Assembly: GCA_045536235.1 (NCBI GenBank)
Contig: JAZSND010000036.1
Coordinates: 18,890 to 82,889, forward strand
DNA: 64,000 nucleotides
Origin: Acutalibacteraceae bacterium
GTDB lineage: Bacteria; Bacillota; Clostridia; Oscillospirales; Acutalibacteraceae
Reading direction: 5' to 3'
Shown here: positions 3,005 to 62,806 of the stretch, one piece after another
How the letters are laid out: each line of letters opens with the position of its first letter
Position numbering within the stretch: the stretch's first letter is position 1
Notes under the pieces: model-generated
What the model was told of the DNA's origin: nothing
Seen by the model: only the letters and a program-made list of their open reading frames with translations
The model's database searches: none
Position numbers and translations under genes: made by a program

Positions 3005-4111
3005 TCAGTCTTTCTTAAGTCGCATCGGAAGAATAAGGAACAGGAAATTATCGCCCTCAGTCGGGAGAATAAGAATCGGCGCTGAGCCTGAATTAAGCTC
3101 AATCTTAACCTCATCTGCATCGCATGCACGAAGTGCATCAAGCAGCAGCTTATTATTGAAGCCGATTTCTATTCTGTTACCCTCGTATTTGCAGGGGAAG
3201 CTGTCATTAGCAGTACCCAGAGCAGTAATTGATGAAATTCTGACCAGCTTATCGTCAAAAATAAATCTGACAGGGCTCTTGAATTTATCTGTGATAATAA
3301 GTGAAGTTCTGTCAATACTTTCAATCATTTCACGGGTGTTGACATAGGCTGTAGAAGCACATGTTGTGGGAATTGCGTTTTTGTAGTTCAAAAATTCGCC
3401 GTCAAGCAGACGTGAAACAAGCTGATAGTTACCTATTTCAAAAATGATGTGACGTTTGCCGACACCGAGTGAAATTGTTTCCTCATCGTCACCGATTAAT
3501 TTAATAACTTCATTAAGTGTTTTTGAAGGAACAACAAAGCTTAGTTCATCGCCAACATAATTTATTGTTTCAGTTCTCATTGCAAGGCGTGAACCGTCAA
3601 CAGCAACAAGGCGGATGAGATTCGGGGCAATCTCAAACTTAACGCCCTGATGAACAACCTTGCTGTCCTTAACAGAAACTGCAAAAATAGTCTGACGGAC
3701 CATATCCTTGAGCATCTTCTGCTCGATAACAACAGGATAGCCGCCGCTGACTGTGGGAAGCTCGGGAAATTCATTGCCGTCTATACCGATAAGTGAATAT
3801 TCGGCTTCGCCGCCACGGATAGTTGCAAGCAGCCTTTCATCAGTTTCAATATATACCTGTTCACCGGGTATTTTACGCACAATATCGCAAAGTATCTTTG
3901 CATTGAGTATAATTGCGCCCTGCTCCATTACACGGCAGGGAATTGAGGTTGTAATACCGACCTCAAGGTCATAGCCTGTTAAAAGCAATTCGTTGCCGAT
4001 TGCCTTAATCAGTATACCCTCAATTGCGGGAATTGTTGTTTTGGTCGATACTGCACGCTGAACGTTTAAGCATGCCTCACTGAGTACAGCGGTATCGCAA
4101 TAAATTTTCAT
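3005..4111 (-). CDS. dnaN: DNA polymerase III beta subunit (sliding clamp)
   Basis: It is 368 aa and sits directly downstream of dnaA. It has the typical three-domain clamp length and C-terminal ...ILPMRL. Confidence 0.93.
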   Translation of the reverse strand: MKIYCDTAVLSEACLNVQRAVSTKTTIPAIEGILIKAIGNELLLTGYDLEVGITTSIPCRVMEQGAIILNAKILCDIVRKIPGEQVYIETDERLLATIRGGEAEYSLIGIDGNEFPELPTVSGGYPVVIEQKMLKDMVRQTIFAVSVKDSKVVHQGVKFEIAPNLIRLVAVDGSRLAMRTETINYVGDELSFVVPSKTLNEVIKLIGDDEETISLGVGKRHIIFEIGNYQLVSRLLDGEFLNYKNAIPTTCASTAYVNTREMIESIDRTSLIITDKFKSPVRFIFDDKLVRISSITALGTANDSFPCKYEGNRIEIGFNNKLLLDALRACDADEVKIELNSGSAPILILPTEGDNFLFLILPMRLKKD

Positions 4112-4865: not shown

Positions 4866-6170
4866 TCACGATGCCTTGACGTTTTTCATAATGTCGGCAA
4901 TGATTGTTTTAAGAGAATAGTTGTTTTCTCTGTCATTTCCGATTTTCTTAACAGCGTACATAACGGAGGAATGGTCAGTCAGACCGAAAACCTCAGCAAT
5001 TTTTTTATTGGTGAGAGGTGTCATTTCCCGGATTATGTACATTGCTACATGACGGGGATAGGTAAACTTCGCATCGTGCTTTTTGCTCTTTATATCGGAA
5101 ACCTGAACACCGTAGGTGCGTGAAACCTCATCAATAATTTTGTCTATAAGCACGGGTGTCGGATCGCCCTCGCTGAAAATATCACGTATAGCTATCTGTG
5201 CAGTTGCCATGTTGGGCTCGGAGCCGTGAAGCGTAATCTGAGCCTGCATGTTTTTAACGGCACCCTCAAGCTGACGGATGTTGCTTTTAATTTTTTCCGC
5301 AATGAAAAGTGCAACCGTATCAGGCAGGTCAATGTTGAGTGATTTTGCCTTGCTCTTGACAATTGCAACTCTTGTTTCAACATCGGGCGGCTGAATATCC
5401 GCAATAAGTCCGCTTTCAAAGCGGTTGCGAAGTCGCTCCTCAAGTGTTGCCATTTCCTTTGGCGGACGGTCGGATGTGAGAACAATCTGGCTCTTTGCCT
5501 TTACAAGTGTGTCAAAAGTGTGGAAAAATTCAAGCTCAGTTGAAGTTTTACCTGCAATAAATTGAACGTCGTCAACAAGCAGTATATCCGCATTGCGGTA
5601 CTTGTTATGGAAAACAGACGTGTCACGTTTATTCTGCAGATAATCAATAAGCTCGTTCATAAAATCCTCGCTGCGGACATATATAATGTGCGCATCGGGA
5701 TTGTTTTTGCGGATTTCAACACAGATTGCATTGAGCAGATGAGTTTTGCCCAGACCTGAGTTACCGTGAATAAACAGAGGGTTATAGGTGTGGCCGGGGT
5801 CGGTTGCAACGGCAAGTGCTGCTGCGTGTGCAAATTTATTGGAATCGCCGACTATGAAATTGTCAAAGTTATATTCATTGCTTTCGCCAAGCTTTACTGC
5901 ACGGGGTTCGGGCTTTTTGGGCTTTTCAGCCGTCGGTACAATCGAAACGTTTACCCTGAAACCCATAATTTTTTCAAAGCAGTCCTCAACAAGTCCGATA
6001 AATTTTTCATTAAGAATTTTACAGCGAAACGGATCGTCGTTTAAGATAACCGTTTCGCCGTCAAAAGTGTCAAGTTTTAAGTGATCAAACCAGACAGCGT
6101 AAACAGTTTCAGAAGTATTCTTTTTAATTTCCGCTTTAACATTTTCCCAGAGTTCATATACTAAATCCAT
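4866..6170 (-). CDS. dnaA: chromosomal replication initiator protein DnaA
   Basis: It has the Walker A motif GNSGLGKTHL, AAA+ motifs and the C-terminal DNA-binding helix (...HSSVMYAVKKI). I chose the start at ATG 6170 (MDLVYELW...) because GGAG lies 6 nt upstream. The ORF-track start at 6287 has no RBS. Confidence 0.95.
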   Translation of the reverse strand: MDLVYELWENVKAEIKKNTSETVYAVWFDHLKLDTFDGETVILNDDPFRCKILNEKFIGLVEDCFEKIMGFRVNVSIVPTAEKPKKPEPRAVKLGESNEYNFDNFIVGDSNKFAHAAALAVATDPGHTYNPLFIHGNSGLGKTHLLNAICVEIRKNNPDAHIIYVRSEDFMNELIDYLQNKRDTSVFHNKYRNADILLVDDVQFIAGKTSTELEFFHTFDTLVKAKSQIVLTSDRPPKEMATLEERLRNRFESGLIADIQPPDVETRVAIVKSKAKSLNIDLPDTVALFIAEKIKSNIRQLEGAVKNMQAQITLHGSEPNMATAQIAIRDIFSEGDPTPVLIDKIIDEVSRTYGVQVSDIKSKKHDAKFTYPRHVAMYIIREMTPLTNKKIAEVFGLTDHSSVMYAVKKIGNDRENNYSLKTIIADIMKNVKAS

Positions 6171-6522
6171 ATTTTTCTCCATATCTTTCTTTTTTCTGTC
6201 GCTGCCAAAGCTGTTGCAGCCTATATTAAGGTAATATTCATTAAAAGGTTTATTATTACGTCCGTAAATACCATAAGAGTATATCATATTTCAATCTCCT
6301 TTTCAACTTTTGAAAATATGGGAAGTTTTCAACAACATCTTGGTTTGGTGCTAAAAAGTCCTCCCATAAATAGTGCTTACAGGCACTTTTTTTCCCCGAA
6401 AAGGTTGAATTTTTTGCAAAAAAAATAAAAAAAATAAATTTGGGTAATTTTTGGTTGTTTTTACCAAATAAAATTGCCCAAAAAGCAGCGGAAAAGATTT
6501 TCAAAAAAATTTGAAATAACTA

Positions 6523-6566: not shown

Positions 6567-6643
6567 GGCGGCATAGCTCAGTTGGCTAGAGCATTCGGTT
6601 CATACCCGGAGTGTCGTAGGTTCAAGTCCCACTGCCGCTACCA
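6567..6643 (+). tRNA. tRNA-Met (anticodon CAT), elongator type; a lysidine-modified tRNA-Ile2 cannot be excluded
   Basis: I folded the cloverleaf by hand. The acceptor stem is GGCGGCA/TGCCGCT, the anticodon loop is TTCATAC (CAT at 6601-6603), the T-loop is TTCAAGT, and CCA is encoded. There is one A-C mismatch in the T stem. It lacks the three G-C pairs of initiator tRNA. Confidence 0.85.
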
Positions 6644-6671: not shown

Positions 6672-6746
6672 GGCCCGGTGGTCAAGCGGTCAAGACACCG
6701 CCCTTTCACGGCGGTAACACGAGTTCGATTCTCGTCCGGGTCACCA
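6672..6746 (+). tRNA. tRNA-Glu (anticodon TTC)
   Basis: GGCCCGGTGGTCAAGCGGTCAAGACACCGCCCTTTCACGGCGGTAACACGAGTTCGATTCTCGTCCGGGTCACCA. This is the classic Bacillota tRNA-Glu sequence, with CCA encoded. Confidence 0.93.
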
Positions 6747-15016: not shown

Positions 15017-15104
15017 ACAGTTTAAAAATATCGGAAAGGAAGATACTCTGTGCGATGGAAAATAAAATTCCGTATGTACTATTCTGTATCATCGGTTGAT
15101 ATTA

Positions 15105-17024
15105 ATGGATAAGAAAAATATTTACATTGTTCAGGCGGGCTGCCTTTACGGAAACACCTATTATTTACCATACGCGGCAGGTATGCTGGCAGCCTTTGCT
15201 TTTGACAACAAAATTATACAGGAACACTATGAACTCAAACGGATAATATACAGTCTGGAAGATATTGATGAAAGCATAAACAGTCTGGAAAATCCCGCAT
15301 TTGTAGGCTTTTCGAATTCAATATGGAATTATAACTATAATCTGGTTTATGCCGAAAAATTAAAGAAAGCCTATCCCGACTGTGTTATTGAGTTTGGCGG
15401 ACACCATATTCCGCCGACAACACAGTACCTTGACGATTACAGCTTTATAGATTTGCTTATTCACCGCAAAGGTGAAGAGGCTTTCCGCGATGTTCTGCTG
15501 GCACTTATTGATAACTCCGATTTGTCAGCGATTCCGAATATTTCTTACCGCTTGTCCGACGGAAAAGCGGTACAGACCCCCGAAAGAAAAATTACCGTTT
15601 CGGATTATCCGTCCCCGTATTTAAACGGCTTTTTCGATGATATTATCAAAAACGGCAAGTATCCGTTTTCCTGTGTTATCGAAACCAACAGAGGCTGTCC
15701 GTATAACTGCAGCTACTGTGACTGGGGCGAGCTCAATTCAAAGGTGCGCCTTTTTCCGCTGGAAAAGGTAATGGCAGAGCTTGAGTGGATGGCTGAGCAC
15801 AAAATGGAATTTGTGTACTGTGTCGATGCCAATTTCGGTATGTTTGAACGCGATGAAATTATCGCTCAGAAAATTGTTGAGCTGAAAGAAACAAAGGGCT
15901 ATCCTAACAGACTGCAGGTTTCCTATGCAAAGAGTGAGCAGGACAGAGTTTTCCGAATCAATAAAATGCTTGCCGATCACGGGATAGGAAAAGGTGCGAC
16001 TCTTGCTCTGCAGAGCCTTGAGCCTGACGTGCTTAAAAATGTCGGGCGTGCAAATATCAGCAAAGAGGAATACGCCAGATCAATTTCACGCTACAGAGAT
16101 GCGGGTATTTCGACCTACACAGAGCTGATCCTCGGTTTACCGGGTGAAACATACGAAAGCTTTACGCGCGGTCTTTGCGAAATTCTTGAACTCGGTCAGC
16201 ACAGCTCAGTCAGTGCGTATTACTGCGAGCTGTTGCCGAATTCCGCATTAAGTACACCCGAATATATTGAAAAGTTTAAAATCAGAACGGTATCAACTCA
16301 TCTCAATCAGTACCATTGCGAGGTTATGGACGATGTTCTGTCAGGCAATTCAACCATTATTGTAGGGACAGAAACGCTGTGTACAGATGAATGGATACAC
16401 GCCAACGAGTTTTCAGTCTGCGTACAGAGTCTGCACCATTTCGGAATTATGCAATGCCTTGCAATGTATATCCGTCACGAGTGCGGAGTTTCATATTTCG
16501 AATTCTATACCGAAATTTTCAGGTACATCTTTACAGAAACTGCTTTCTGTAAAGCGGTTTTCCGGGATGTTACGTCAATCCTCAGAAACTTTGTTGACGG
16601 AAAAGGCGGACTGACATATCAGAACGATGTTTTCGGAAAAATAACTTATCCGCTGGAAGAAGCTGTATTTCTGATTTTCCAATATAATTCCAAGCTGTTT
16701 TATGAAGAGATGGAAAGATTTGTCCGCAGATATATCAAAGACGAAAAACTTCTCTATCAGCTTTTCAAATATCAGCGTGCGGTTGTTCTAAGACCCGGAA
16801 TGAACGAATTCACCAAGTGTTTTGACTACGACTTTTCCGAATACTTCGATTCTATACTCAGAAATTCATATACCCCGTTAAAGAAAAAAAGAGTAAAATA
16901 CAAGTTCTCAACCGTATTCGCTACAGACAGCTGGGAAGAATATGCGAGGGAAATAATCTGGTACGGCAGAAGAAACAGCAGAATGATGTTTTCGAGTGCT
17001 CCCAACCGTATAGAAAAAATCTGA
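15105..17024 (+). CDS. B12-binding-domain radical SAM enzyme (class B), paralog 1
   Basis: The N-terminal region is Rossmann-like and B12-type (VGFSNSIWNYNYN...FGGHHIPP). The CxxxCxxC motif CPYNCSYC is at 15696-15719. It also has ELILGLPGETYESF, GQH and a C-terminal EEYAREIIWYGRRN. I prefer ATG 15105; the ORF-track TTG 15096 is possible. Confidence 0.85.
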   Translation: MDKKNIYIVQAGCLYGNTYYLPYAAGMLAAFAFDNKIIQEHYELKRIIYSLEDIDESINSLENPAFVGFSNSIWNYNYNLVYAEKLKKAYPDCVIEFGGHHIPPTTQYLDDYSFIDLLIHRKGEEAFRDVLLALIDNSDLSAIPNISYRLSDGKAVQTPERKITVSDYPSPYLNGFFDDIIKNGKYPFSCVIETNRGCPYNCSYCDWGELNSKVRLFPLEKVMAELEWMAEHKMEFVYCVDANFGMFERDEIIAQKIVELKETKGYPNRLQVSYAKSEQDRVFRINKMLADHGIGKGATLALQSLEPDVLKNVGRANISKEEYARSISRYRDAGISTYTELILGLPGETYESFTRGLCEILELGQHSSVSAYYCELLPNSALSTPEYIEKFKIRTVSTHLNQYHCEVMDDVLSGNSTIIVGTETLCTDEWIHANEFSVCVQSLHHFGIMQCLAMYIRHECGVSYFEFYTEIFRYIFTETAFCKAVFRDVTSILRNFVDGKGGLTYQNDVFGKITYPLEEAVFLIFQYNSKLFYEEMERFVRRYIKDEKLLYQLFKYQRAVVLRPGMNEFTKCFDYDFSEYFDSILRNSYTPLKKKRVKYKFSTVFATDSWEEYAREIIWYGRRNSRMMFSSAPNRIEKI

Positions 17025-17038
17025 TTTCAACATAAAGT

Positions 17039-18952
17039 GTGGTGATAAATCTGAAAAGAATATATATATCTCAGCCCAATTCACAGTACGGCAAATCCAT
17101 TTATTTTCCATATGCCGCAGGCTCGCTTATTGCTTATGCCTTTGATGATGAGAGAATAAAAAGTGCATACGATTTCAAAGGCTTTGTCTACAAAAAAACA
17201 GATATAGACGCTATCGTTTCAGATTTGGATTCACCGTTTGTTTTTGGCTTTTCCTGTTATATCTGGAACTACGAATACAACAAGGCTCTTGCAAGGGCTG
17301 TCAAGTCAGCTTTCCCCGATTGCAGAATAGTTTTCGGCGGTCATCAGGTCAATGAAAACAGCGATATTGTACGGGAGGAGTTTGTTGATTATATCCTGCT
17401 CGGTGAGGGCGAAGAAAGTTTCCGCAAGCTGCTTTTGTGTTTTTGCGGCGAGGAGAAAATTGAAAATATACCCGATCTTCTTTATCGCAAAGACAACGCT
17501 TTTGTCAGGACAGACTCAGTCTGCCCGGATATTCCGCACAGGGTTTCACCTTATGTCAACGGGTATTTTGACAGCCTTGTTCAGGCCGAGGAGCTTGCTT
17601 TTTCAGCAATTCTTGAAACCAACAGAGGCTGTCCGAATAAATGTGCATTCTGTGATTGGGGAAACATAAAATCCAGAATCACGCTGTACGATCTGAAGAC
17701 CGTTAAGGCAGAAATCGACTGGATGGCTGAAAACAGAATTGAATACTGCTACTGTGCCGATTCAAACTTCGGTCTGTTTGAAAGAGATATGGAGGTTGTT
17801 GATTACCTGATACAAAAGCACAGGGAAACAGGCTATCCTCAGAAGTTTCAGGCAACATATTCTAAGAACAATCCCGGAACAGTTTTCGCCATTACAAAAA
17901 AGCTCAACGAATCGGGAATGAGCAAGGGCGCCACGCTGTCATTCCAGTCAATGCAGCAGGAGGTGCTGGACAATATCTACAGAAAAAATATGCCGCTGTC
18001 AAGCTTTAAAGAGTTGATGTCGCTGTACAGCAAAAACGGAATTTCGGCATACTCGGAAATTATAATCGGTCTGCCGGGTGAATCCTACGAAAGCTTCAAG
18101 GACGGTATTGAACAGCTGCTTGAGTCAGGTCAGCATATGTCCATCAATTTCTTTAACTGTGAGCTTCTGGTGAATTCCGTTATGAACGACCCTTACTACG
18201 TGGAAAAGCACAGAATAAAATATGCTCTGACCGAGCTTCACCAATATCACATAGAGCCGAAAGAAAACGAAATACCTGAGCTTTCGCGCATTGTTGTTTC
18301 AACATCAACGATGTCAGAAAACGATTGGATGCAGTGCAATATTCTGTCCGTTTTTGTACGTGCTTTTCATAATCTCGGCTTGCTTCAGGCTGTTGCGATT
18401 TATCTTTATTTTGAAAAGAATATTCCTTATACAGACTTTTACTGTTCCCTCATCAGGTGGTCGGAGTCAAAGCCCGATTCTGTCTGCGGTCAGATTTATT
18501 TATGGCTCAGGGCTAAGTATGAAGAGGTTCTGAGGAATGAAGGCTCGCTGACCGGCGTTGAACCCGATTTCGGACTGCTGACGTGGCCGCTTGATGAAGC
18601 CGCTTTCCTTAAAGCGATAAAGGATATCAAAAGATTTTATGAGGAAACGGCAGAGTTTATCAGACCTTATTTTGATGATAAAGAAGTATATAACGGACTC
18701 ATGCTGTACCAGACGTCTGTTGTCAAGAGCCCGTACAACTCAGAAGCTGATTTGCTTCTGAGCCATGACTGGTATGCGTATTTTAAATCGGTGTATACGA
18801 ACTGTTACGCTCCGCTTGTCAAAAAAACGAACAGAATATTTATCGACGCTTCCGATATTCCGTCTGACCCTGAAGAATACGCAAAGCAGGTAATATGGTT
18901 CGGCAGAAAAGGCGGACAGAACATCATTACAAATATAAATTATATTAATTGA
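17039..18952 (+). CDS. B12-binding-domain radical SAM enzyme (class B), paralog 2
   Basis: It has the same architecture. CPNKCAFC is at 17630-17653. The C-terminal motif is EEYAKQVIWFGRKG. It uses a GTG start 15 nt after the paralog 1 stop. Confidence 0.85.
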   Translation: MVINLKRIYISQPNSQYGKSIYFPYAAGSLIAYAFDDERIKSAYDFKGFVYKKTDIDAIVSDLDSPFVFGFSCYIWNYEYNKALARAVKSAFPDCRIVFGGHQVNENSDIVREEFVDYILLGEGEESFRKLLLCFCGEEKIENIPDLLYRKDNAFVRTDSVCPDIPHRVSPYVNGYFDSLVQAEELAFSAILETNRGCPNKCAFCDWGNIKSRITLYDLKTVKAEIDWMAENRIEYCYCADSNFGLFERDMEVVDYLIQKHRETGYPQKFQATYSKNNPGTVFAITKKLNESGMSKGATLSFQSMQQEVLDNIYRKNMPLSSFKELMSLYSKNGISAYSEIIIGLPGESYESFKDGIEQLLESGQHMSINFFNCELLVNSVMNDPYYVEKHRIKYALTELHQYHIEPKENEIPELSRIVVSTSTMSENDWMQCNILSVFVRAFHNLGLLQAVAIYLYFEKNIPYTDFYCSLIRWSESKPDSVCGQIYLWLRAKYEEVLRNEGSLTGVEPDFGLLTWPLDEAAFLKAIKDIKRFYEETAEFIRPYFDDKEVYNGLMLYQTSVVKSPYNSEADLLLSHDWYAYFKSVYTNCYAPLVKKTNRIFIDASDIPSDPEEYAKQVIWFGRKGGQNIITNINYIN

Positions 18953-18959
18953 CAGACTT

Positions 18960-20882
18960 GTGGTGAGCATTTTGGAAAAGAAAAAAATTTACTTTGTTCA
19001 ACCGAATACAATGCTGGGCAATTCCGTTTACTTCCCCTATGCTGTCGGTGTATTGGCTTCCTATGCCATGCAGTTTGAGGATATTGAGCAGAATTATGAA
19101 ATCGGTGGAATATTTTTCAAAGAGGATTCCGAGGAGGATGTTTTCCGCTGTATCGAAAAGCCTTTCATAGTCGGTTTTTCAAACTATTTCTGGAACTATA
19201 AATACAATCTGAAAATTGCAGAAAAAGTCAAGGAAAAATATCCCGGCTGCACGGTGATTTTCGGCGGACACCAGATTCCGCGAAGCACAGAGTTTCTTGA
19301 AAAATATCCGTTTATTGATTTGCTGATATTCGGTGAAGGCGAAATGCCATTTGTGAATATTCTGCGTGCTTTGGATTCACACGGAAAGGTTTCCGGTATC
19401 TGCAATGTTGCGTACAGAAACGAGTCGGGCGAGATTGTGAAAACGCCTGACAAATACGAGGGTGTTGAAGATTATCCCTCACCCTATCTTACGGGTATAT
19501 TTGACAGGCTGTGCAATGTTCCTGACGGCATTGAGTTTAACGCACAGCTTGAAACCAACAGAGGATGTCCGTATCACTGTTCGTTCTGTGACTGGTGCGA
19601 TTACGATATTCCTATGCGGAAATTCCCGATGGAACGGGTTAAAAAAGACCTTGAGTGGATTTCGGCACATAAAATTTCTTACTGTATGTGTGTTGATTCG
19701 AATTTCGGTCTTTTTGAGCGTGATGAGGAAATTGCCCGCTTTGCAGCAGAGCTGAAAACAAAAAACGGCTATCCCGACAAATTCGGTGCCTGCTTTGCAA
19801 AAAACAAAACCGACCGTATATTCAGAATAAACAAGCTTCTCAATGATGTCGGAATGAGCAAAGGTGTTTCGCTTGCATTCCAGAGTATGTCAGAAGATGT
19901 TCTGAAAAATATTTCACGCAGAAACATGAACAAGGACAGTCTGTCAGACCAGCTTGAGATGTATCACAAGGCAGGTATTCCCACCTACACGGAGCTGATT
20001 CTCGGTCTGCCGGGTGAAACGCTGGAGAGCTTTTCAAAGGGCATATGTGAGCTTCTTGAAAGAGGTCAGCACGACTCAATCAACGTTTTCCGCTGCGAGG
20101 TTTATCCGAATTCTACCCTTGCCGACAAAGCGTATATGAAAAAGTTCGGCATAAAAACTGCAATAAACAAGCTCAACATAAATCACTGCAAGATTTCCAA
20201 CGCAGTTTTTGCAGGCGGACTTGAATATATCGTCGAAACCTCTACGATGACAGCAAAGGAGCTTGTAAAGGCAACTGTTTTTTCAGCGTGTATCCAGAGC
20301 ATACACTGTCACGGACTGTTACAGTGCTTTGCAATATATATGCACAATTCTATGGGTGTCAGCTATTACGATTTTTATGAGGCGTTCACAGCTTACTTTG
20401 CCGGAAGGGACGGAGTAATCGGCGATACTGTCCGCAGAATCAGTAAATGTATTGAGTCAACCTCTGAGGGTGCGACGGATATGTCGTATATCAATCCCGA
20501 ATTCGGAGATATAACATGGCCTTATGAAGAGGCAATGCTTCTTGATTATATTTATGAGCTTGACAAATTCTACGGTGAGGCGAAAGAGTTTATAATGTCA
20601 TTCGGCATTGACCCGAAGGTGTTTGACGAGCTTATGCTTTATCAGAAAAATATGATAGTTGTACCGGGTGTCAACGATGTTACACTTGATTTTGAGTATG
20701 ACTGGAATTCATATTTTGACGGTATACTTTCCAACAGAGAAGTATGCCTTGAGAAAAGACCGACTGTTGTCAGATTCTTTGCAGAGCGTGTTCCCGACAG
20801 CTGGAAAGATTACGCCCGTGAAATAATCTGGTACGGCAGAAGAAACAAAAAAACAATCAGAAAAACTGAAGTAATTCAATAG
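18960..20882 (+). CDS. B12-binding-domain radical SAM enzyme (class B), paralog 3
   Basis: It has the same architecture. CPYHCSFC is at 19566-19589. The C-terminal motif is KDYAREIIWYGRRN. It uses a GTG start 8 nt after the paralog 2 stop. Confidence 0.85.
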   Translation: MVSILEKKKIYFVQPNTMLGNSVYFPYAVGVLASYAMQFEDIEQNYEIGGIFFKEDSEEDVFRCIEKPFIVGFSNYFWNYKYNLKIAEKVKEKYPGCTVIFGGHQIPRSTEFLEKYPFIDLLIFGEGEMPFVNILRALDSHGKVSGICNVAYRNESGEIVKTPDKYEGVEDYPSPYLTGIFDRLCNVPDGIEFNAQLETNRGCPYHCSFCDWCDYDIPMRKFPMERVKKDLEWISAHKISYCMCVDSNFGLFERDEEIARFAAELKTKNGYPDKFGACFAKNKTDRIFRINKLLNDVGMSKGVSLAFQSMSEDVLKNISRRNMNKDSLSDQLEMYHKAGIPTYTELILGLPGETLESFSKGICELLERGQHDSINVFRCEVYPNSTLADKAYMKKFGIKTAINKLNINHCKISNAVFAGGLEYIVETSTMTAKELVKATVFSACIQSIHCHGLLQCFAIYMHNSMGVSYYDFYEAFTAYFAGRDGVIGDTVRRISKCIESTSEGATDMSYINPEFGDITWPYEEAMLLDYIYELDKFYGEAKEFIMSFGIDPKVFDELMLYQKNMIVVPGVNDVTLDFEYDWNSYFDGILSNREVCLEKRPTVVRFFAERVPDSWKDYAREIIWYGRRNKKTIRKTEVIQ

Positions 20883-20900: not shown

Positions 20901-22820
20901 ATGAAGAATGTTTATTTTGTTCAACCCAACAATTCTCTTTCGGGTTCTCTTTTTTTACCTTATGCTGTCGGTTCGCTTGCAGCATATTCTTTTCAGCACG
21001 AAGAGATAAAAAGCAGTTATAATCTGTGCGAATTTATTTTCACAAAGGATACTGTTGAAAAAGCGCTCGAAAAAATAAAAGACCCGTACATAACCGGCTT
21101 TTCCTGCTATATGTGGAATGTTGAATACAATCTTATGCTTGCGGAAGAAATCAAGAAGAAATATCCGCAGTCAATCATTGTTTTCGGCGGTCCGCAGGTT
21201 CCTAACGACACGCAGTATCTGCAGGAATACGGCTTTATTGATATACTGATACACGGCGAAGGTGAAATTGCTTTTTATGAATTTCTGAGAAGTGCTGACG
21301 GCGGAAACGATCCGGGCAGTATCTTTAACATATCCTACAGAAAAGACGGAGAGATTTTAAAGACAGCGCAAAAATCTGTTTGCGATTTAAGCGGCTTTCC
21401 GTCCCCTTATTCGGCGGGACTGTTTGACAGCATTATTGACAATCCCGAATATGAGGGGATACAGTTTGATGCAATCATAGAAACCAACAGAGGCTGTCCG
21501 TACAGATGCATTTACTGCTGTTGGGCAGGCAACAAGGATATTTTCCGCCAGTTCCCTGAGAAGAGAATCAAAGAGGATTTGGATTGGATAGCAAAAAATA
21601 AAATCGCTTTTTGTATTTGTGCGGATTCAAATTTCGGTATACTTGACCGTGATGAAAAAATAGCGGAATATATCGTTGAGCTTAAACGTACTTACGGCTA
21701 TCCGCAGAAATTTGAAACAACGGCGGCAAAGAATAAAGACAGTCTTGTATTCAGAATTAATCAGAAGCTTGATTCCGAAAACCTGAACCGCGGTATATCC
21801 GTAGCGGTGCAGAGTATGTCAGAAAAAGTTCTGGAAATAATAGGCAGAAAAAACATATCGGTCGACAACCTTGCCGAACAGCTGGACAAATACAGAAAAG
21901 CGGGAATGTACACCTACACCGATATTATTCTGGGACTTCCGGGTGAAACGTTCGATAGCTTCTGCGAAGGGCTGTTCAGTGTTATTGAAGCAGGTCAGCA
22001 TTATTCCATTAACATAAACCGCTGTGAATTTTTGCCGAACTCGCTTATGTATACAAAGGAATATGTTGACAAATACAAAATAAAAACAATCCGTTCCTAT
22101 CTGTGCCAGAACCACAGCAGAAAGGTTGAGAATCTGCGGTTCGGTTCACGTTCGGAGCTTGTTGTTGAAACGGATACAATGAGCAAAGCTGACTGGAGAA
22201 GAGCGCTCAGGCTGTCTGTGTGTGTGCAGAGCTTTCACTGTATGGGGCTGCTGCGCTTCATCGCAGTTTATCTGAGAAAAGCACGGAAAATATCGTACAG
22301 GGAATTCTATTTCAATTTGTTTGAATGGATAGAAAACGAAAGCATATTTATAAAGCAAACGTTGGATTATGTCTGCGCAAGCATAGATGATTTTCTGTAC
22401 GGAAACGGAAATCTTTCTTTTTCTGACAGCAGGTTCGGAGAAATTTACTGGCCGTTTGATGAGGCACTGTTCCTCTGCCTTGCGTGTGAGGCGGATAACT
22501 TCTACAGAGAAATCAGCAGCTTTTTGTCGGTCGCTTTGGATCAGAACGATGAAATGATTTCTGATTTGTACAGGTATCAGAAGAATATAATTCTTTTGCC
22601 CGACCGGAGCGAAAATACATTCAGCCTGCGCTATGACTGGCATAAATATTTTGATGATTTGTATGATACGGAGGTCACCGTTCCGGCCGAACGAAGACTT
22701 GTAATCAGAACAGAAAAAAGCGAATTAAAATCGTGGGAGGATTACGCTCGTTACATTGTCTGGTACGGCAGACGTGACGATAAAACCGTCAACAAAAATA
22801 TCACTTGCAGTTACGGATAA
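20901..22820 (+). CDS. B12-binding-domain radical SAM enzyme (class B), paralog 4
   Basis: It has the same architecture. CPYRCIYC is at 21495-21518. The C-terminal motif is EDYARYIVWYGRRD. A strong AAGGAGG lies upstream of ATG 20901. Confidence 0.87.
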   Translation: MKNVYFVQPNNSLSGSLFLPYAVGSLAAYSFQHEEIKSSYNLCEFIFTKDTVEKALEKIKDPYITGFSCYMWNVEYNLMLAEEIKKKYPQSIIVFGGPQVPNDTQYLQEYGFIDILIHGEGEIAFYEFLRSADGGNDPGSIFNISYRKDGEILKTAQKSVCDLSGFPSPYSAGLFDSIIDNPEYEGIQFDAIIETNRGCPYRCIYCCWAGNKDIFRQFPEKRIKEDLDWIAKNKIAFCICADSNFGILDRDEKIAEYIVELKRTYGYPQKFETTAAKNKDSLVFRINQKLDSENLNRGISVAVQSMSEKVLEIIGRKNISVDNLAEQLDKYRKAGMYTYTDIILGLPGETFDSFCEGLFSVIEAGQHYSININRCEFLPNSLMYTKEYVDKYKIKTIRSYLCQNHSRKVENLRFGSRSELVVETDTMSKADWRRALRLSVCVQSFHCMGLLRFIAVYLRKARKISYREFYFNLFEWIENESIFIKQTLDYVCASIDDFLYGNGNLSFSDSRFGEIYWPFDEALFLCLACEADNFYREISSFLSVALDQNDEMISDLYRYQKNIILLPDRSENTFSLRYDWHKYFDDLYDTEVTVPAERRLVIRTEKSELKSWEDYARYIVWYGRRDDKTVNKNITCSYG

Positions 22821-24165: not shown

Positions 24166-24296
24166 ATATAAATGATTTGCTGACAAGGAGTTCGTTATGT
24201 TATTTTTGTCAAGGGTTACAAAATAACCAAAAGAACATATGGAGCTGTCAAGATGATTCTTTTACGCAAAATGTTACTTCAGCGATATGATTTCAT
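24166..24296 (-). repeat. degenerate, internally deleted copy (E) of the intergenic repeat family, inverted orientation
   Basis: The minus strand reads ...CATATCGCTGAAGTAAC..GCGTAAAAGAATCAT..ACAGCTCcatatGTTCTTTTGGTTATTTTGTAACCCTTGACAAAAATAACATAACGAAC...TCATTTATATG. This matches the short variant at 43676-43922 module by module. Confidence 0.7.
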
Positions 24297-27465: not shown

Positions 27466-27480
27466 AATATTCTCCTTTTT

Positions 27481-27950
27481 AAATTACAATTTAGCGGCGA
27501 GTCGCCGCAGACAATGCGCCTATTGAAAATATCATTAATAATAAAAATGCATCAACGGCGGAGATTAAAAAAGCGTAAAAACAATATCAATATAAAAAAT
27601 GAAAAATGCTGTGAATTTGAACGAAACAGGCTGACGGGCTGAAGCTTTATTCATTTATCCGAGCGAGGGAACCATAGGCGGTAGAGCAAACTTAAAAGTC
27701 AGATTTACTTTTATAGCCGTTATGGCAGCAGAACAAAACATTTTTTGTTCTGTCTGCCGAGCGGATTGACTCTCGTCAGCCGTCGTGTAGTGCTTATAAC
27801 TCCAAAAGTTTTTTTGGTTACTTTTGTAACGCTTGACAAAAGTAACAATATCTTTACTTTAAAATTCCCCACACAATCCCTCAGTCAAAATTACAAGCTT
27901 TACACAAGGAAGCCCATTGGCAAACAAATTAACAGAGCGCTAAACTGTAA
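27481..27950 (+). repeat. intergenic repeat family, copy A
   Basis: It shares the core ...CATCAACGGCGGAGATTAAAAA...GCTGTGAATTTGAACG.AACAGGCTGACG...TTATCCGAGCGAGGGAACCATAGGCGG...GGTTACTTTTGTAACGCTTGACAAAAGTAAC... with copies at 43.3, 46.7 and 62.2 kb. Boundaries are +/-10 nt. Confidence 0.9.
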
Positions 27951-27951
27951 T

Positions 27952-29406
27952 TTAATTTACCGAAACGGATTCTTTCTGCTCAAGCTGCTGCGCACGTTCT
28001 CTTCTCTGCCGCAGCTCGTATTCTATGCGCAGTCTTTCGTTCTTGTCATCCTTTACAAAGGAAATAACAATAAGGTAAAGTGCTGCGCCGATAGCGGGAC
28101 CGAGTGCATACATCGGCCACTGCATTTTCATGAAGGTTACATTCTGTGCGGTGCGGGGCAACTTGCTGTCGTAGCGGAGAAGCTTCAGGATGATGCCTTC
28201 CATAAGGCTCGTTGTGCCCGTGTTGATTTTGCTTACGAAGTTCTGCATTGAGAATGATATACCCTCAATACGCACACCTGTGCGGTATTCAACATCGTCA
28301 ATCGAGTCGCTGGTGAGTGAACGGTGTGCAAAATCCTTGTTGCTGGTGAATACGCCGAAAACGCTGAACAGCATGCCGCATATAATAACCTGAACAGGGC
28401 TCTTGAAGCCGACAAAGAATGCGCCGACACGGCAGACGATTTCAGCAACGCTCGCTGTAACGAGCAGCTTTTTCATACCGCCGCATCTTTTGGCAAGCTC
28501 AGTTGCAAAGAAAACGGCTACGGCAGAGGTGACACCGCTGAGCGTGCCAAAAAGGAATTCGAGGTTCATGCCGTCAACACCGGGGAAGATGTTGTTTGCT
28601 GAGCTTTCAAAGAAATATGCATTCTGCACCTTGAAGTTGAGGTTGCAAAGTATTCTCGCAACGGAGATAAGGATAAGTGTACGGTTGTATTTGAGATAGC
28701 TGATAGTTTTGAGTATGTTTTCATTGGGCGTATCGCTCTGTACACGCTCCGGCATTTTGTGAGCGGACATTGAAATGATTTCACCGAGGAAGCCGAAGAT
28801 AAATGCGAACAGCAGGAAAACCTCGTAGTCGCTCAGCCCCATGCCGAGGAATGCGCTGCGGAAGGTCTGGAAAAAGCTTGCAATTGTGGAACCTGCACCT
28901 GCGCCGATGCCTGCCCATTTAGCAGCTCTTGAACGCTCCTGTGAGCTGGGCGAACAAACGGAAACCATGCCCCAGAGCGCAACATCCTGGAATGAGTAGA
29001 TGAAATCCCAGATGAAGAAAATGAGCAGTATGTAGCAGAGCTTGAGCGTTTCGGAAAGACCTTCGATGTTGAAGAACATCGCAAAGCTCAGCGCACCGAC
29101 AATCGGCGGAGTATATATAAGATACGGGCGCAGCTTTTCGCCCTTTTTGCTTCTGTGGCGGTCAACAAAGGAGCCGATGAACGGGTCGTTGATTGCGTCC
29201 CAGATGTTGCTTGCAAAGAAAATGCCGCCAACTTTACCTGCATCAATGTGAAGCATGTTGATGCAGAAGTATCGCAGCCAGCCCGAAATATAGCTGTAGG
29301 TCATGTTCTGACCTGCAAGACCCAGTCCGTAATTAAACAGCCTGCGGTTAGCTACGCTGTCACCCGATTCCTCTTTGGAAAAAATATACCTGACAGGGTT
29401 TTTCAT
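27952..29406 (-). CDS. glycoside-pentoside-hexuronide (GPH)/MFS-type sugar:cation symporter
   Basis: It is 484 aa with about 12 TM segments and a MelB/GPH-like N-terminus (YGLGLAGQNMTYSYISGWLRYF..., DAINDPFIGSFVDR). Confidence 0.75.
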   Translation of the reverse strand: MKNPVRYIFSKEESGDSVANRRLFNYGLGLAGQNMTYSYISGWLRYFCINMLHIDAGKVGGIFFASNIWDAINDPFIGSFVDRHRSKKGEKLRPYLIYTPPIVGALSFAMFFNIEGLSETLKLCYILLIFFIWDFIYSFQDVALWGMVSVCSPSSQERSRAAKWAGIGAGAGSTIASFFQTFRSAFLGMGLSDYEVFLLFAFIFGFLGEIISMSAHKMPERVQSDTPNENILKTISYLKYNRTLILISVARILCNLNFKVQNAYFFESSANNIFPGVDGMNLEFLFGTLSGVTSAVAVFFATELAKRCGGMKKLLVTASVAEIVCRVGAFFVGFKSPVQVIICGMLFSVFGVFTSNKDFAHRSLTSDSIDDVEYRTGVRIEGISFSMQNFVSKINTGTTSLMEGIILKLLRYDSKLPRTAQNVTFMKMQWPMYALGPAIGAALYLIVISFVKDDKNERLRIEYELRQRRERAQQLEQKESVSVN

Positions 29407-43278: not shown

Positions 43279-43675
43279 TAGTTGCAGCGAGTCGCCGGTG
43301 CGGAACGCACACTAAATGCCGCTTATTGAAAAGTTTTATTAGAAGAACAAATACATCAACGGCGGAGATTAAAAAGCGCAAAAGCAATATCAATGTAAAA
43401 AATGAACGATGCTGTGAATTTGAACGGAACAGGCTGACGAGCATAAAACTTAACTCATTTATCCGAGCGAGGGAACCATAGGCGGTAGAGCAAACTTAAA
43501 AGTCAGTTTTGCTTTAATAGCCGTTATGACAGCAGAACAAAACATTTTTTGTTCTGTCTGCCGAGCGGATTTGCTATCGTCAGCCGTTGTGGAGTGCATA
43601 TAACCCCAAAAGTTTTTTTGGTTACTTTTGTAACGCTTGACAAAAGTAACCTAACGAACCTCATTTATATCGCTG
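43279..43675 (+). repeat. intergenic repeat family, copy B1
   Basis: It has the full core. Its right part is of the short type and ends ...CAAAAGTAACCTAACGAACCTCATTTATATCGCTG. Copy B2 follows directly. Confidence 0.9.
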
Positions 43676-43922
43676 AATTACAGTTTGGCAGCGTGACGCT
43701 GCACCCAATGCCGGTGCGAAGCGCACACCGGATGCCGCCTATTGAAAAATATCATTAATAATAAAAATACATCAACGGCGGAGATTAAAAAGCGCAAAAG
43801 AAACATAAATATAAAAATTAAAGATGCTGTGAAGTGCATACAGCTCAAAAAGTTCTTTTGGTTACTTTTGCAACGCTTGACAAAAGTAACATAACGAATC
43901 CTGATTATATCGCTGCAGTTTA
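43676..43922 (+). repeat. intergenic repeat family, copy B2 (about 200-bp internal deletion)
   Basis: It starts AATTACAGTTTGGCAGCGTGACGCTGC. The core is deleted between GCTGTGAA and GTGCATA. It ends TATATCGCTGCAGTTTA, overlapping the stop codon of the BlaR1-like gene. Confidence 0.88.
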
Positions 43923-46582: not shown

Positions 46583-46607
46583 ATGCTTCTCCTCCTCTTT
46601 TTGTATT

Positions 46608-46657
46608 CTAATGCATTAGTACAATATCATTCTAACGCATTAGAATAGTTTTGTCAA
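46608..46657 (-). promoter_or_regulatory. promoter with two dyad operators for the BlaI-like repressor
   Basis: On the minus strand: TTGACA (46652-46657), 17 nt, then TAGAAT (46629-46634). The perfect palindrome CTAATGCATTAG is at 46608-46619. The near-palindrome TTCTAACGCATTAGAA at 46630-46645 overlaps the -10 and spacer. Confidence 0.7.
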
Positions 46658-46664
46658 TAGAAAA

Positions 46665-47277
46665 ATTACAGTTTGGCAGCGTGACGCTGCACCCAATGCC
46701 GGTGCGAAGCGCACACCGGATGCCGCCTGTTGAAAAATATCATTAATAATAAAAATACATCAACGGCGGAGATTAAAAAGCGTAAAAGCAATATCAATAT
46801 AAAAAATGAAATATGCTGTGAATTTGAACGGAACAGGCTGACGAGCATAAAACTTAATTCATTTATCCGAGCGAGGGAACCATAGGCGGTATAGCAAACT
46901 TAAAAGTCAGATTTGCTTTTGTAGCCGTTATGGCAGCAGAACAAAACAATTTTTTGTTCTGTCTGCCGAGCGGATTTACTATCGTCAGCCGTAGTGTAGT
47001 GCATATAACCCCAAAAGTTCTTTTGGTTACTTTTGTAACGCATGACAAAAGTAACAATATCTTTACTTTGAAATTTTCCACACAATCCCTCAGTCAAAAT
47101 CGCTTGCGATTTTGACAGCTCCCTTTACACGAGGGAGCCCATTTGCAAACAAATTAACAGAGCGATAAACTGTACTTTGTCAATATGTGAACTATCGTTT
47201 ACGCGATATGATATAAATCCCCGTACGCCGCAGCGTATATCGCAAATCCCGTAAGGGATCTATATCGCTGCAGTTTA
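46665..47277 (+). repeat. intergenic repeat family, copy C (longest, about 610 bp)
   Basis: It begins ATTACAGTTTGGCAGCGTGACGCTGC and ends TATATCGCTGCAGTTTA. It contains all modules seen in the other copies. Confidence 0.92.
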
Positions 47278-61691: not shown

Positions 61692-62171
61692 ATGAACGTA
61701 ACAATTATATGTTTAGGTAAATTGAAGGAAGCTTACCTGCGTGATGCATGTGTAGAATATGTTAAACGACTAGGCGCATTCTGTAAAATAAATATAGTTG
61801 AGCTTAATCCCGTAAAGCTGCCCGACAGTCCGTCACAGGCGCAGATTGATGCAGCACTTGACACCGAAGCCAGGCTGATTACCGAAAAAATCCCCAAGGG
61901 TGCGGCATGCTTTGCAATGTGTATTGAGGGAAAGCAGTATTCTTCTGAAAAATTCAGCAGTCTTTTGCAGACTGCAGGTGTTGAGGGCGGTGCAAATGCC
62001 GTATTCATCATCGGCAGCAGCTTTGGCCTGAGCGGAAAAATAAAGCAGCTGTGCAAATATAAACTCTCCATGTCGGAAATGACCTTTCCGCACCAGCTCG
62101 CCAGAGTAATGCTGCTCGAACAGATTTACAGAGCCTTCCAGATTTCAAGCGGCGGAAAGTACCACAAATAA
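61692..62171 (+). CDS. rlmH: 23S rRNA (pseudouridine1915-N3)-methyltransferase
   Basis: It is a 159-aa SPOUT protein. The N-terminus is ...IICLGKLKE.YL and the C-terminus is ...MTFPHQLARVMLLEQIYRAF. Confidence 0.9.
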   Translation: MNVTIICLGKLKEAYLRDACVEYVKRLGAFCKINIVELNPVKLPDSPSQAQIDAALDTEARLITEKIPKGAACFAMCIEGKQYSSEKFSSLLQTAGVEGGANAVFIIGSSFGLSGKIKQLCKYKLSMSEMTFPHQLARVMLLEQIYRAFQISSGGKYHK

Positions 62172-62650
62172 CAGTTCAGCAGCGTGACGCTGCACCCAAT
62201 GTCGGTGCGAAACGCACTCTATATGCCGCCTATTGAAAAATATCATTAATAATAAAAACACATCAACGGCGGAGATTAAAAAGCGTAAAAGAAATATCAC
62301 TTTAAAAAATGAAAGATGCTGTGAATTTGAACGGAACAGGCTGACGAGCATAAAACTTTACTCCTTTATCTGAGCGAGGGAACCATAGGCGGTAGAGCAA
62401 AATTAAAAGTCAGATTTACTTTTATAGCCGTTATGGCAGCAGAACAAAACAACTTTTTGTTCTGTCTGCCGAGCGGATTTGCTATCGTCAGCCGTCGTGA
62501 AGTGCATATAACCCCAGAAGTTCTTTTGGTTACTTTTGTAACGCATGACAAAAGTAACAATATCTTTACTTTAAAATTCCGCACACTGTGGGGGAATCTT
62601 CCCTTTACACAAGGGAGCCCATTTGCAAACAAATTAAAAGAGCGAAAATC
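62172..62650 (+). repeat. intergenic repeat family, copy D
   Basis: It starts at or just after the rlmH stop codon (TAACAGTTCAGCAGCGTGACGCTGC). The core is colinear with copies A and C. The right boundary is approximate. Confidence 0.9.
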
Positions 62651-62806
62651 GTAATTTGCAGGAACTGCTCAATGCGGTTCTTTTTTATTTGTAAACAAAA
62701 CGCAAATTTTTCTAAAATGTCTTTTATTTTTTAAAGATATATGTTATAATTCCACAAAGTGCTTTATTTTATCATAAAGCAGAAAACTGAAAGGAGTTTT
62801 CAAACT

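Follow-up and report, generated by a model that had tools for sequence, protein, structure and literature searches.

What are the hairpin-rich repeats that lie between the genes in this stretch of 64,000 nucleotides from an Acutalibacteraceae bacterium (assembly GCA_045536235.1, contig JAZSND010000036.1; the whole stretch is hereafter called the window), how do they come to be there and what do they carry? A first-pass annotation had described them as a modular repeat family and had placed them with the IS200/IS605-type elements that are moved by Y1 transposases, with a structured non-coding RNA as one of the alternatives. The answer towards which we lean, and which we regard as rather probable, is that they constitute a modular family of miniature inverted-repeat transposable elements (MITEs) that target the dinucleotide TA, are bounded by terminal inverted repeats (TIRs) and have a new candidate structured RNA as their cargo.

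That the repeat family is real, far beyond chance, can be stated plainly. Five repeat units are found at four loci (A, B1 together with B2, C and D), all on the plus strand and with a mutual identity of 89-95%. The copies claimed previously were recovered when copy C was compared with the window by blastn, the matches being copy D (93% over 413 nt, E=1e-174), copy A (89% identity, 460 nt aligned), copy B1 (92% identity, 359 nt aligned), the two retained parts of copy B2 (95% over 159 nt and 89% over 63 nt) and an inverted fragment, E (90% identity, 40 nt), with E-values between copies of 1e-142 to 1e-174. No extra copies were found in the window by nhmmer with a profile of the core beyond those listed here:

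27487-27947, plus strand: copy A, complete element with TIRs CAATTTAGCG (27487-27496) and CGCTAAACTG (27938-27947)
27485-27486 and 27948-27949: TA flanks of copy A
27606-27846, plus strand: predicted structured core of copy A
43279-43675, plus strand: copy B1, left end truncated, predicted core 43409-43650, right arm ending ...TTATATCGCTG
43681-43919, plus strand: copy B2, left module intact, 3' hairpin kept (43858-43890), TA at 43679-43680 before the TIR
46669-47172, plus strand: inner element of copy C, left TIR CAGTTTGGCAGCG (46669-46681), right TIR CGATAAACTG (47163-47172)
46667-46668 and 47173-47174: TA flanks of copy C
46676-46690 and 46699-46719: left-module hairpins of copy C
46722-46727 with 46765-46769: GCCGCC/GGCGG stem of copy C
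46813-47055, plus strand: predicted structured core of copy C, from ATGCTGTG... to ...GACAAAAGTAAC
47175-47277, plus strand: tail of copy C, short GC hairpins each followed by ATATCGC, outside the TIR-bounded element
62172-62651, plus strand: copy D, predicted core 62316-62558, right TIR CGAAAATCG (62643-62651), TA at 62652-62653
24198-24248, minus strand: fragment E, a solo 3' hairpin module with B-type right arm and without core

Every copy is intergenic, as had been noted before, and the hairpins and palindromes named in the first-pass annotation were all found where it had placed them. Open reading frames (ORFs) overlapping the copies differ from copy to copy and none is common to them, in agreement with the claim that there is no conserved ORF, and a Pfam scan of the 30 larger ORFs of the window revealed no transposase; the description of the family as non-autonomous, modular and dispersed stands. 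The span of 46665-47277 that had been assigned to copy C does contain the repeat, but it is a composite of an A-type element (46669-47172) and a separate array of hairpins and ATATCGC heptamers (47175-47277). The genes flanking the copies are unrelated housekeeping genes, encoding an acyltransferase, an MFS transporter, BlaI/BlaR1, RlmH, a lipase and a U32 peptidase. A gap of 2 nt (27950-27951) lies between the right TA of copy A and the MFS transporter stop codon (27952-27954), copy D has the stop codon of rlmH (62169-62171) on its left and the native terminator of that gene (about 62655-62684) on its right, and the right end of B2 adjoins the stop codon of the BlaR1-like gene (43920-43922). 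B1 and B2 themselves adjoin head to tail, and B2 has lost its core through a deletion between GCTGTGAA and GTGCAT, which left the left module and the 3' hairpin in place.

What, then, bounds an element? The earlier statement that the repeats have no long terminal inverted repeats is contradicted by copy A, which has an 18-nt inverted repeat (27479-27496 and 27938-27955) that is 94% complementary, and degenerate versions of it are found in C and D. Among the loci from related genomes, which are designated here by L numbers, L047 has a 250-bp element with a perfect 24-nt TIR and the same GCAGCGTGACGCTGC left hairpin, with no core, L050 and L009 have mini-elements of about 27 bp that consist of the TIR pair only, and L057 also has a TIR pair. 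When 29 ends from the window and the relatives were aligned from the outside inwards, the order proved to be flank, TA and then a TIR starting (C/T)AGTTT, which continues as CAGTTTRGCRGCG in the window type and as YAGTTTTTGAAACAG in other species, and the ends of the family can be written as TA followed directly by CAGTTTAGCG... or by YAGTTTTTGAAACAG. TA adjoins 27 of the 29 ends and the flank before it is AAAT or AAAG on both sides, so that the context is mirror-symmetric, with AAAT-TA before CAGTTT at one end and AAACTG before TA-ATTT at the other. The motif A-A-(A/G)-T-(T/A)-A-C, which had been said always to precede the left junction, is present in A, B2, C and D but missing in B1, and the right ends show its mirror image, TAATTT. 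The flanks are native sequence at D and at A, since the AAATAA preceding copy D is the conserved 3' end of rlmH and occurs also in genomes without the element, and since the stop codon of the MFS gene falls in the flank of copy A. The elements thus have terminal inverted repeats, small size and no ORF, as is expected of MITEs, and the combination of TA flanks and TIRs may be read as the signature of TA-duplicating MITEs of the Tc1/mariner/IS630 type. ISY100 and other IS630/Tc1 elements insert almost solely at TA, which is duplicated in the process (PMC2170065), and the termini of the RUP and Correia MITEs likewise carry TA (PMC2229807).

The notion that the elements are instead mobilised as single-stranded DNA (ssDNA) by a Y1 HUH transposase, either as palindrome-associated transposable elements (PATEs) of IS200/IS605 or as repetitive extragenic palindromes (REP/REPIN) moved by REP-associated tyrosine transposases (RAYT), is the one that the first-pass annotation had preferred; the hairpins and the core would then serve in ssDNA recognition and TTAC would be the cleavage or target tetranucleotide. 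In its favour are the findings that the left hairpin comes after a TTAC in A, B2, C, L015, L016, L050, L057 and L009, that the 27-bp mini-elements resemble REP palindromes with a 5' tetranucleotide, that other REP-like hairpins ending CTAC are abundant in these genomes, that the folding strand is on the lagging-strand template right of dnaA/dnaN at all four window loci, and that the asymmetry of G:T wobble pairs described below is also compatible with ssDNA. IS200/IS605 elements, however, lack TIRs and are expected to show a conserved tetranucleotide at their left side alone, whereas the ends and flanks found here include TIRs and are mirror-symmetric (AAAT-TA and CAG at the left, CTG and TA-ATTT at the right), and this holds at 27 of the 29 ends. 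In addition, no tnpA, RAYT or tnpB gene is present among the 30 larger ORFs of the window, no match to IS605-orfB or HEARO was obtained in Rfam, and a multi-helix core of about 245 nt, equipped with intrinsic terminators in some lineages, far exceeds the needs of a Y1 enzyme. The orientation bias is a matter of four core-bearing loci (n=4), all on the plus strand and right of dnaA/dnaN, where the GC skew is positive, and an RNA gene transcribed in the direction of replication would be expected to show it equally well. Mobilisation by a Y1 transposase is consequently unlikely in our judgement, and the IS200/IS605 inference is not borne out.

The insertion polymorphism that had been called for as a check is seen between species: among the nearest relatives available, site D is empty in L041-L047 and L056, and sites B and C are empty in L048 and L049. 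At site A three different members of the family are found in three species with identical boundaries, set by the stop codon of the MFS gene on one side and the ribosome-binding site of the following gene on the other, namely the 461-bp element with core in the window, a roughly 150-bp element with REP-like cargo in L057 and a version in L050 that starts with the TIR-pair mini-element; several short contigs stop within this L050-type mini-element, as expected for a repeat. At the orthologous loci L004 and L007 of two species, the flanks of which are 84-91% identical, an element of 96.7% identity occupies the same TA in opposite orientations. In another orthologous pair, L010 and L011, the orientation is the same and the elements, compared over about 495 bp, differ at 2 positions, whereas their flanks differ at 7-15 in every 100 bp; the arms are conserved as strongly as the core. 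Judged from such comparisons, the site patterns fit repeated and highly target-specific insertion from a recently shared source, and very strong constraint on the element may be an alternative account of them. As a separate observation, the ortholog of site C in L049 (6642-7091) holds, instead of copy C, a gene for a four-helix protein of the 23S-rRNA-intervening-sequence type (PF05635), and different kinds of insert turn over at this intergenic site.

The opposite orientations in L004 and L007 might also be taken to suggest that the modules are moved or inverted by a site-specific recombinase, acting either on Xer/dif-like modules or as the invertase of an inverton, in which case the ends would be two-armed sites with a central crossover region. 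The two loci do differ by an inversion with breakpoints in a central TA(TA), and each end in L002, L004 and L007 reads arm-TATAC-arm, e.g. ACTGTTTACAAAAG TATAC ATTTTGAAACAGT. Furthermore, C has three sites in alternating orientation and B1 and B2 share a junction, which recalls the pdif sites of Acinetobacter, where dif modules are bounded by 28-bp sites in alternating orientation, each made of a 6-bp spacer between conserved arms for XerC and XerD (PMC13141974). In the alignment of 29 ends, however, what would be the outer arm resolves into a variable A-rich target flank followed by TA and the TIR, and we rejected Xer/dif modules and invertase sites for this reason. The outer arms do not have the conservation expected of a recombinase arm, a preference for palindromic targets explains why the ends look palindromic, and the ends of the window type are without two-armed structure. 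The Pfam scan of 30 window ORFs revealed no recombinase, and the related loci have no neighbouring gene in common. A recombinase origin is hence made very unlikely, and TA-targeted transposition is the reading with which we continue.

What do the elements carry? The only part common to the relatives is a core of about 245-260 nt with roughly 80% identity. Relatives were collected by an exact-pattern scan with the 3' palindrome over one genome per GTDB species, which yielded 16 loci, all of them from metagenome-assembled genomes of ruminant-gut Clostridia/Acutalibacteraceae, and five further metagenome loci were found by a pattern independent of the 3' palindrome; the left module of the window type was seen in only two of the relatives, L015 and L016. 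All-against-all clustering of the ORFs at the 16 genome loci and in the window showed no gene shared next to the core other than in orthologous-locus pairs. Known RNA families do not account for the core. At gathering thresholds Rfam 15 recognised two tRNAs only in the whole window, and scans at permissive E-values with copy C and the divergent metagenome copies gave noise only, with no HEARO, IS605-orfB, ROOL, GOLLD or OLE, so the comparison with Rfam that had been proposed leaves the core without a fitting family. Plasmid and phage collections contained no true match (blastn in distant mode), and two pattern scans of viral contigs likewise gave no true match, their 19 pattern hits being due to chance.

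An alignment of 22 core sequences made with MAFFT was folded with RNAalifold. The consensus is predicted to have a long-range helix, GGCUGACGR/YCGUCAGCC (GGCUGACGA/UCGUCAGCC in copy C), that encloses a multi-helix junction. Also predicted are the enclosed helices CCRYAGGC/GCCGUURYGG and, listed apart from them, an 11-bp hairpin, GCAGAACAAAA/UUUUGUUCUGU, that is replaced by other but still paired sequences in L006, L008 and L036-L040. At the 3' end copy C has two hairpins, CCAAAAGTTCTTTTGG (47011-47026) and GTTACTTTTGT-N8-ACAAAAGTAAC (47026-47055), and the latter, an 11-bp terminal hairpin, is invariant in sequence as well as in structure. Over the 45 pairs of seven helices 98.7% of the cells are paired, and 10 pairs have changes on both sides. 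The number of double-change cells is 61 as compared to 17.9±3.3 in shuffled alignments, none of 500 shuffles reaching 61, and when the partners were slid by 1-3 columns as a control, 0-9 such cells remained. Compensatory changes are seen within the window too: alignment pair 49/192 of the core is G-C in copy A and A-U in the other copies, the left hairpin is GCGGCG/CGCCGC in copy A and GCAGCG/CGCTGC in the others, and in fragment E both arms of the 3' hairpin have changed together from C-G to T-A. The fold of a single sequence has a minimum free energy z-score of -4.3. There are furthermore 49 cells with G:T or T:G as opposed to 2 with A:C or C:A, and from this asymmetry the fold can be assigned to the plus strand only. 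Covariation and strand-specific wobble pairs thus speak in favour of the structured RNA that the first-pass annotation had mentioned as an alternative, and the core is a new candidate structured non-coding RNA with a conserved multi-helix fold. A closing helix P1 (AUAUGC/GCAUAU) was discarded, since it is predicted in copy C alone and is not conserved in the family.

In L040 at least three core units stand in tandem, and after each of them comes a canonical terminator-like hairpin with a T run, and in L008 and L036-L039 a GC hairpin directly follows the core. We have taken these terminator-like hairpins as support for transcription of the plus strand. The core is met in three kinds of context, namely within TIRs of the window type, within other TIRs and in tandem arrays with terminators, and this may suggest that it is a multi-copy host gene for a non-coding RNA, either a trans-acting small RNA or the RNA component of a ribonucleoprotein, while the TIRs and REP-like modules are independent of it and merely share AT-rich intergenic hot spots. 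Such an interpretation is in agreement with the retention of the core at orthologous loci in the species pairs L003/L006 and L010/L011, with the existence of core-less TIR shells in L047, L050, L057 and L009, and with the finding that modules of the right arm stand alone elsewhere (L050 16690, L006, L040). It is in poor agreement, however, with the facts that the identity of 89-93% between A, C and D is continuous from TIR to TIR and extends beyond the core, that sites are empty in relatives, that the whole TIR-to-TIR unit lies in opposite orientations at one TA in L004 and L007, and that the arms in L010 and L011 match the core in conservation. We find a host RNA gene beside independent repeats about as improbable as mobilisation by a Y1 enzyme, and prefer to regard the core as cargo of a TA-targeting MITE.

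According to this preferred explanation, each element sits in a TA inside the AT-rich palindromic target AAAT-TA-ATTT and would be moved by a transposase whose gene lies elsewhere in the genome. To judge from the TA flanks and TIRs, this would be a DDE enzyme that works by cut and paste, like those of Tc1/mariner/IS630. In this genome the shells carry, besides a number of small REP-like hairpin modules, the core of about 245 nt, which is the evolutionarily conserved unit. Most likely the core would be expressed as a structured non-coding RNA, either by read-through, as could be the case for copy D between rlmH and its terminator, or from a weak internal promoter, and the invariant 11-bp 3' hairpin may form the 3' end of the RNA or stabilise it and may furthermore be a sequence-specific protein-binding site.

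Several observations nonetheless weigh against this explanation or some part of it. The left flank of D is AA and not TA, and the TA may in any case represent the outermost bases of the TIR rather than a duplication, the empty sites seen being those of other species. A perfect 10-bp direct repeat, TTTGTCAATA (46650-46659 and 47175-47184), brackets the inner element of C and falls outside the TA model; as a target duplication it was rejected, A and D being without it. No transposase with matching TIRs was found among the 30 larger window ORFs scanned against Pfam, and no parent element in the viral, plasmid and phage collections, the IS630 assignment being made from TA flanks and TIRs alone, and no convincing sigma-70 promoter is present upstream of the core in the window copies. 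The covariation derives from 22 sequences that represent a modest number of lineages, several being closely related, G:T wobble is tolerated in folded ssDNA too, which leaves room for a role as ssDNA, and the near-identity of L010 and L011 at orthologous sites may reflect recent spread and not selection.

How does such a family compare with known repeats? The BOX elements of Streptococcus pneumoniae (boxA-boxB-boxC) are, like those of the window, modular, variable in module content, intergenic and endowed with a stable predicted structure, but their modules are 45-60 bp and they have neither a long-range multi-helix core nor a TA/TIR signature. The bcr1-bcr18 repeats of the Bacillus cereus group are likewise repeats of Firmicutes, some of them MITE-like and some forming RNA structures with compensatory changes, with other sequences, sizes and hosts. 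IS200/IS605 PATEs and the REP/REPIN-RAYT systems share with the present elements the wealth of hairpins, the lack of a transposase and a conserved short sequence beside a terminal hairpin, whereas TIRs and symmetric TA flanks, in place of a one-sided target, set the window elements apart. The closest resemblance in general build is perhaps to RUP of S. pneumoniae, which is related to IS630-Spn1, and to the Correia/NEMIS elements of Neisseria, since these too are short, intergenic, present in many copies and without ORF, have TIRs and TA termini and are presumed to be moved in trans by a transposase of the IS630/Tc1 type (PMC2229807; PMC2170065). Their transcribed structure can also affect neighbouring genes (PMC2229807; PMC2170065). 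RUP (107 bp) and Correia elements (about 100-155 bp) are, however, essentially one long stem-loop driven by the TIRs, whereas the window elements of 460-500 bp carry a multi-helix cargo of about 245 nt that covaries across species and occurs in different shells, and no cognate insertion sequence turned up for them in the searches made here.

With the omega RNA of TnpB/IscB and the bridge RNA of IS110 the core has in common a conserved RNA structure, a length in the range of 150-300 nt and a physical place inside a mobile element, but unlike these it has no adjacent nuclease or recombinase gene and no copy-specific variable guide. An omega-RNA-like guide following the 3' hairpin was sought and rejected, as the segment in question is common to the copies and its ATAACG is common across species, and loops complementary to ends or targets in the manner of a bridge RNA were likewise rejected, there being no consistent match other than a likeness of the hairpin arms to the TIR/target junction. 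The arms of the 3' hairpin (TACTTTTGT/ACAAAAGTA) do recur over 8-11 nt in TIR/target junctions of related elements, the hairpin echoes the preferred junction ...ACAAAAG-TA-CTTTTGT..., and it is the one module retained even in the core-less copies B2 and E. The recurrence at the junctions points to a shared protein-recognition sequence. One could go further and propose, though we hold this to be quite unlikely, that the core acts as an RNA cofactor in moving the very element that carries it, in a family of TA-targeting TIR transposons not known to use RNA. Were it true, the RNA might act on the transposase by recruiting, titrating or directing it, or the DNA palindrome might do so, the re-use of the same TA sites across species and in both orientations would be accounted for, and, if the RNA acts in target choice, there would be a third kind of RNA-assisted transposition beside those by omega RNA and bridge RNA, and on a non-autonomous element.

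Bacterial MITEs are usually simple hairpins, and a complex RNA under structural selection as the cargo of a MITE raises the question of whether a host gene is hitching a ride or whether the RNA renders a service to the element. RNAs tied to transposons have recently proved to be guides, as with omega RNA and bridge RNA, and the present case is therefore worth testing. The candidate RNA, of about 245 nt and with seven helices, covariation and no Rfam family, belongs to uncultured ruminant-gut Clostridia (Acutalibacteraceae), where the same RNA module travels in interchangeable miniature transposon shells. The TA sites that have been re-occupied in both orientations are furthermore a natural marker of target-specific insertion and of strain variation, and the contigs of several metagenomes break exactly at the repeats, which sets a limit on assembly in this clade.

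The variable arms are separate small repeat families in their own right. Arrays of hairpins and ATATCGC, which are REP-like, make up the tail of C, B-type right ends and L006 4200-4520, and a module CCCTCAGTCA...GCTCCCTTTACACRAGGGAGCCC is found alone in L050 (16690) and inverted in L040. More generally, arrays of a GC hairpin and a fixed heptamer, ATATCGC in the window (47175-47277) and L006 and ATATAAC(T) in L049 (6500-6660) and L056 (914-1100), occupy intergenic hot spots in the clade as a distinct REP-like family. In other species GC hairpins with a CCCTAC end are frequent around the core, e.g. GGGACGTCGAGGACGCCGTCCCCTAC, and such hairpins are seen in L007 (4790-4890), in L047 (8960-9040) and 3' of the core in L001, L004, L005, L012 and L014. 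The unit is amplified in L007 as a 25-bp tandem repeat, its stem shows a compensatory change between loci (GGGTC/GACCC versus GGGAC/GTCCC), and its CTAC/GTAG end is reminiscent of the REP sequences that serve RAYT transposases as recognition sites. A further small palindromic repeat, AAGATCCTTCACTTGCGTTCAGGATGACAC, is widespread in these genomes and goes, with its complement, along with the core in several species; it was noted in L040 (2044-2075 and 2290-2320), L010 (2790-2830) and L050 (11680-11760).

As to the surroundings, a 16-nt inverted repeat, TATTCTAATGCATTAG/CTAACGCATTAGAATA, at 46604-46647 lies upstream of the gene for a BlaI-like repressor; conserved also in L049, it probably represents the operator for BlaI, outside the repeat element. 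The left copy of TTTGTCAATA contains the -35 box (TTGACA, minus strand) of the predicted blaI promoter. Nearer the start of the window are dnaN (3005-4111) and dnaA (4866-6287), both on the minus strand, followed by two tRNA genes on the plus strand (6567-6640 and 6672-6743), and the cumulative GC skew has its minimum near 8-10 kb. From dnaA/dnaN and this minimum it follows that the replication origin of the chromosome lies in the window, with the repeat copies clustered no more than 60 kb away. Four tandem paralogs of about 640 amino acids each (15096-17024, 17039-18952, 18960-20882 and 20901-22820) are preceded by a cluster with glycosyltransferase and fucose-pyrophosphorylase genes, and radical SAM and B12-binding domains were recognised in the two paralogs that were scanned.

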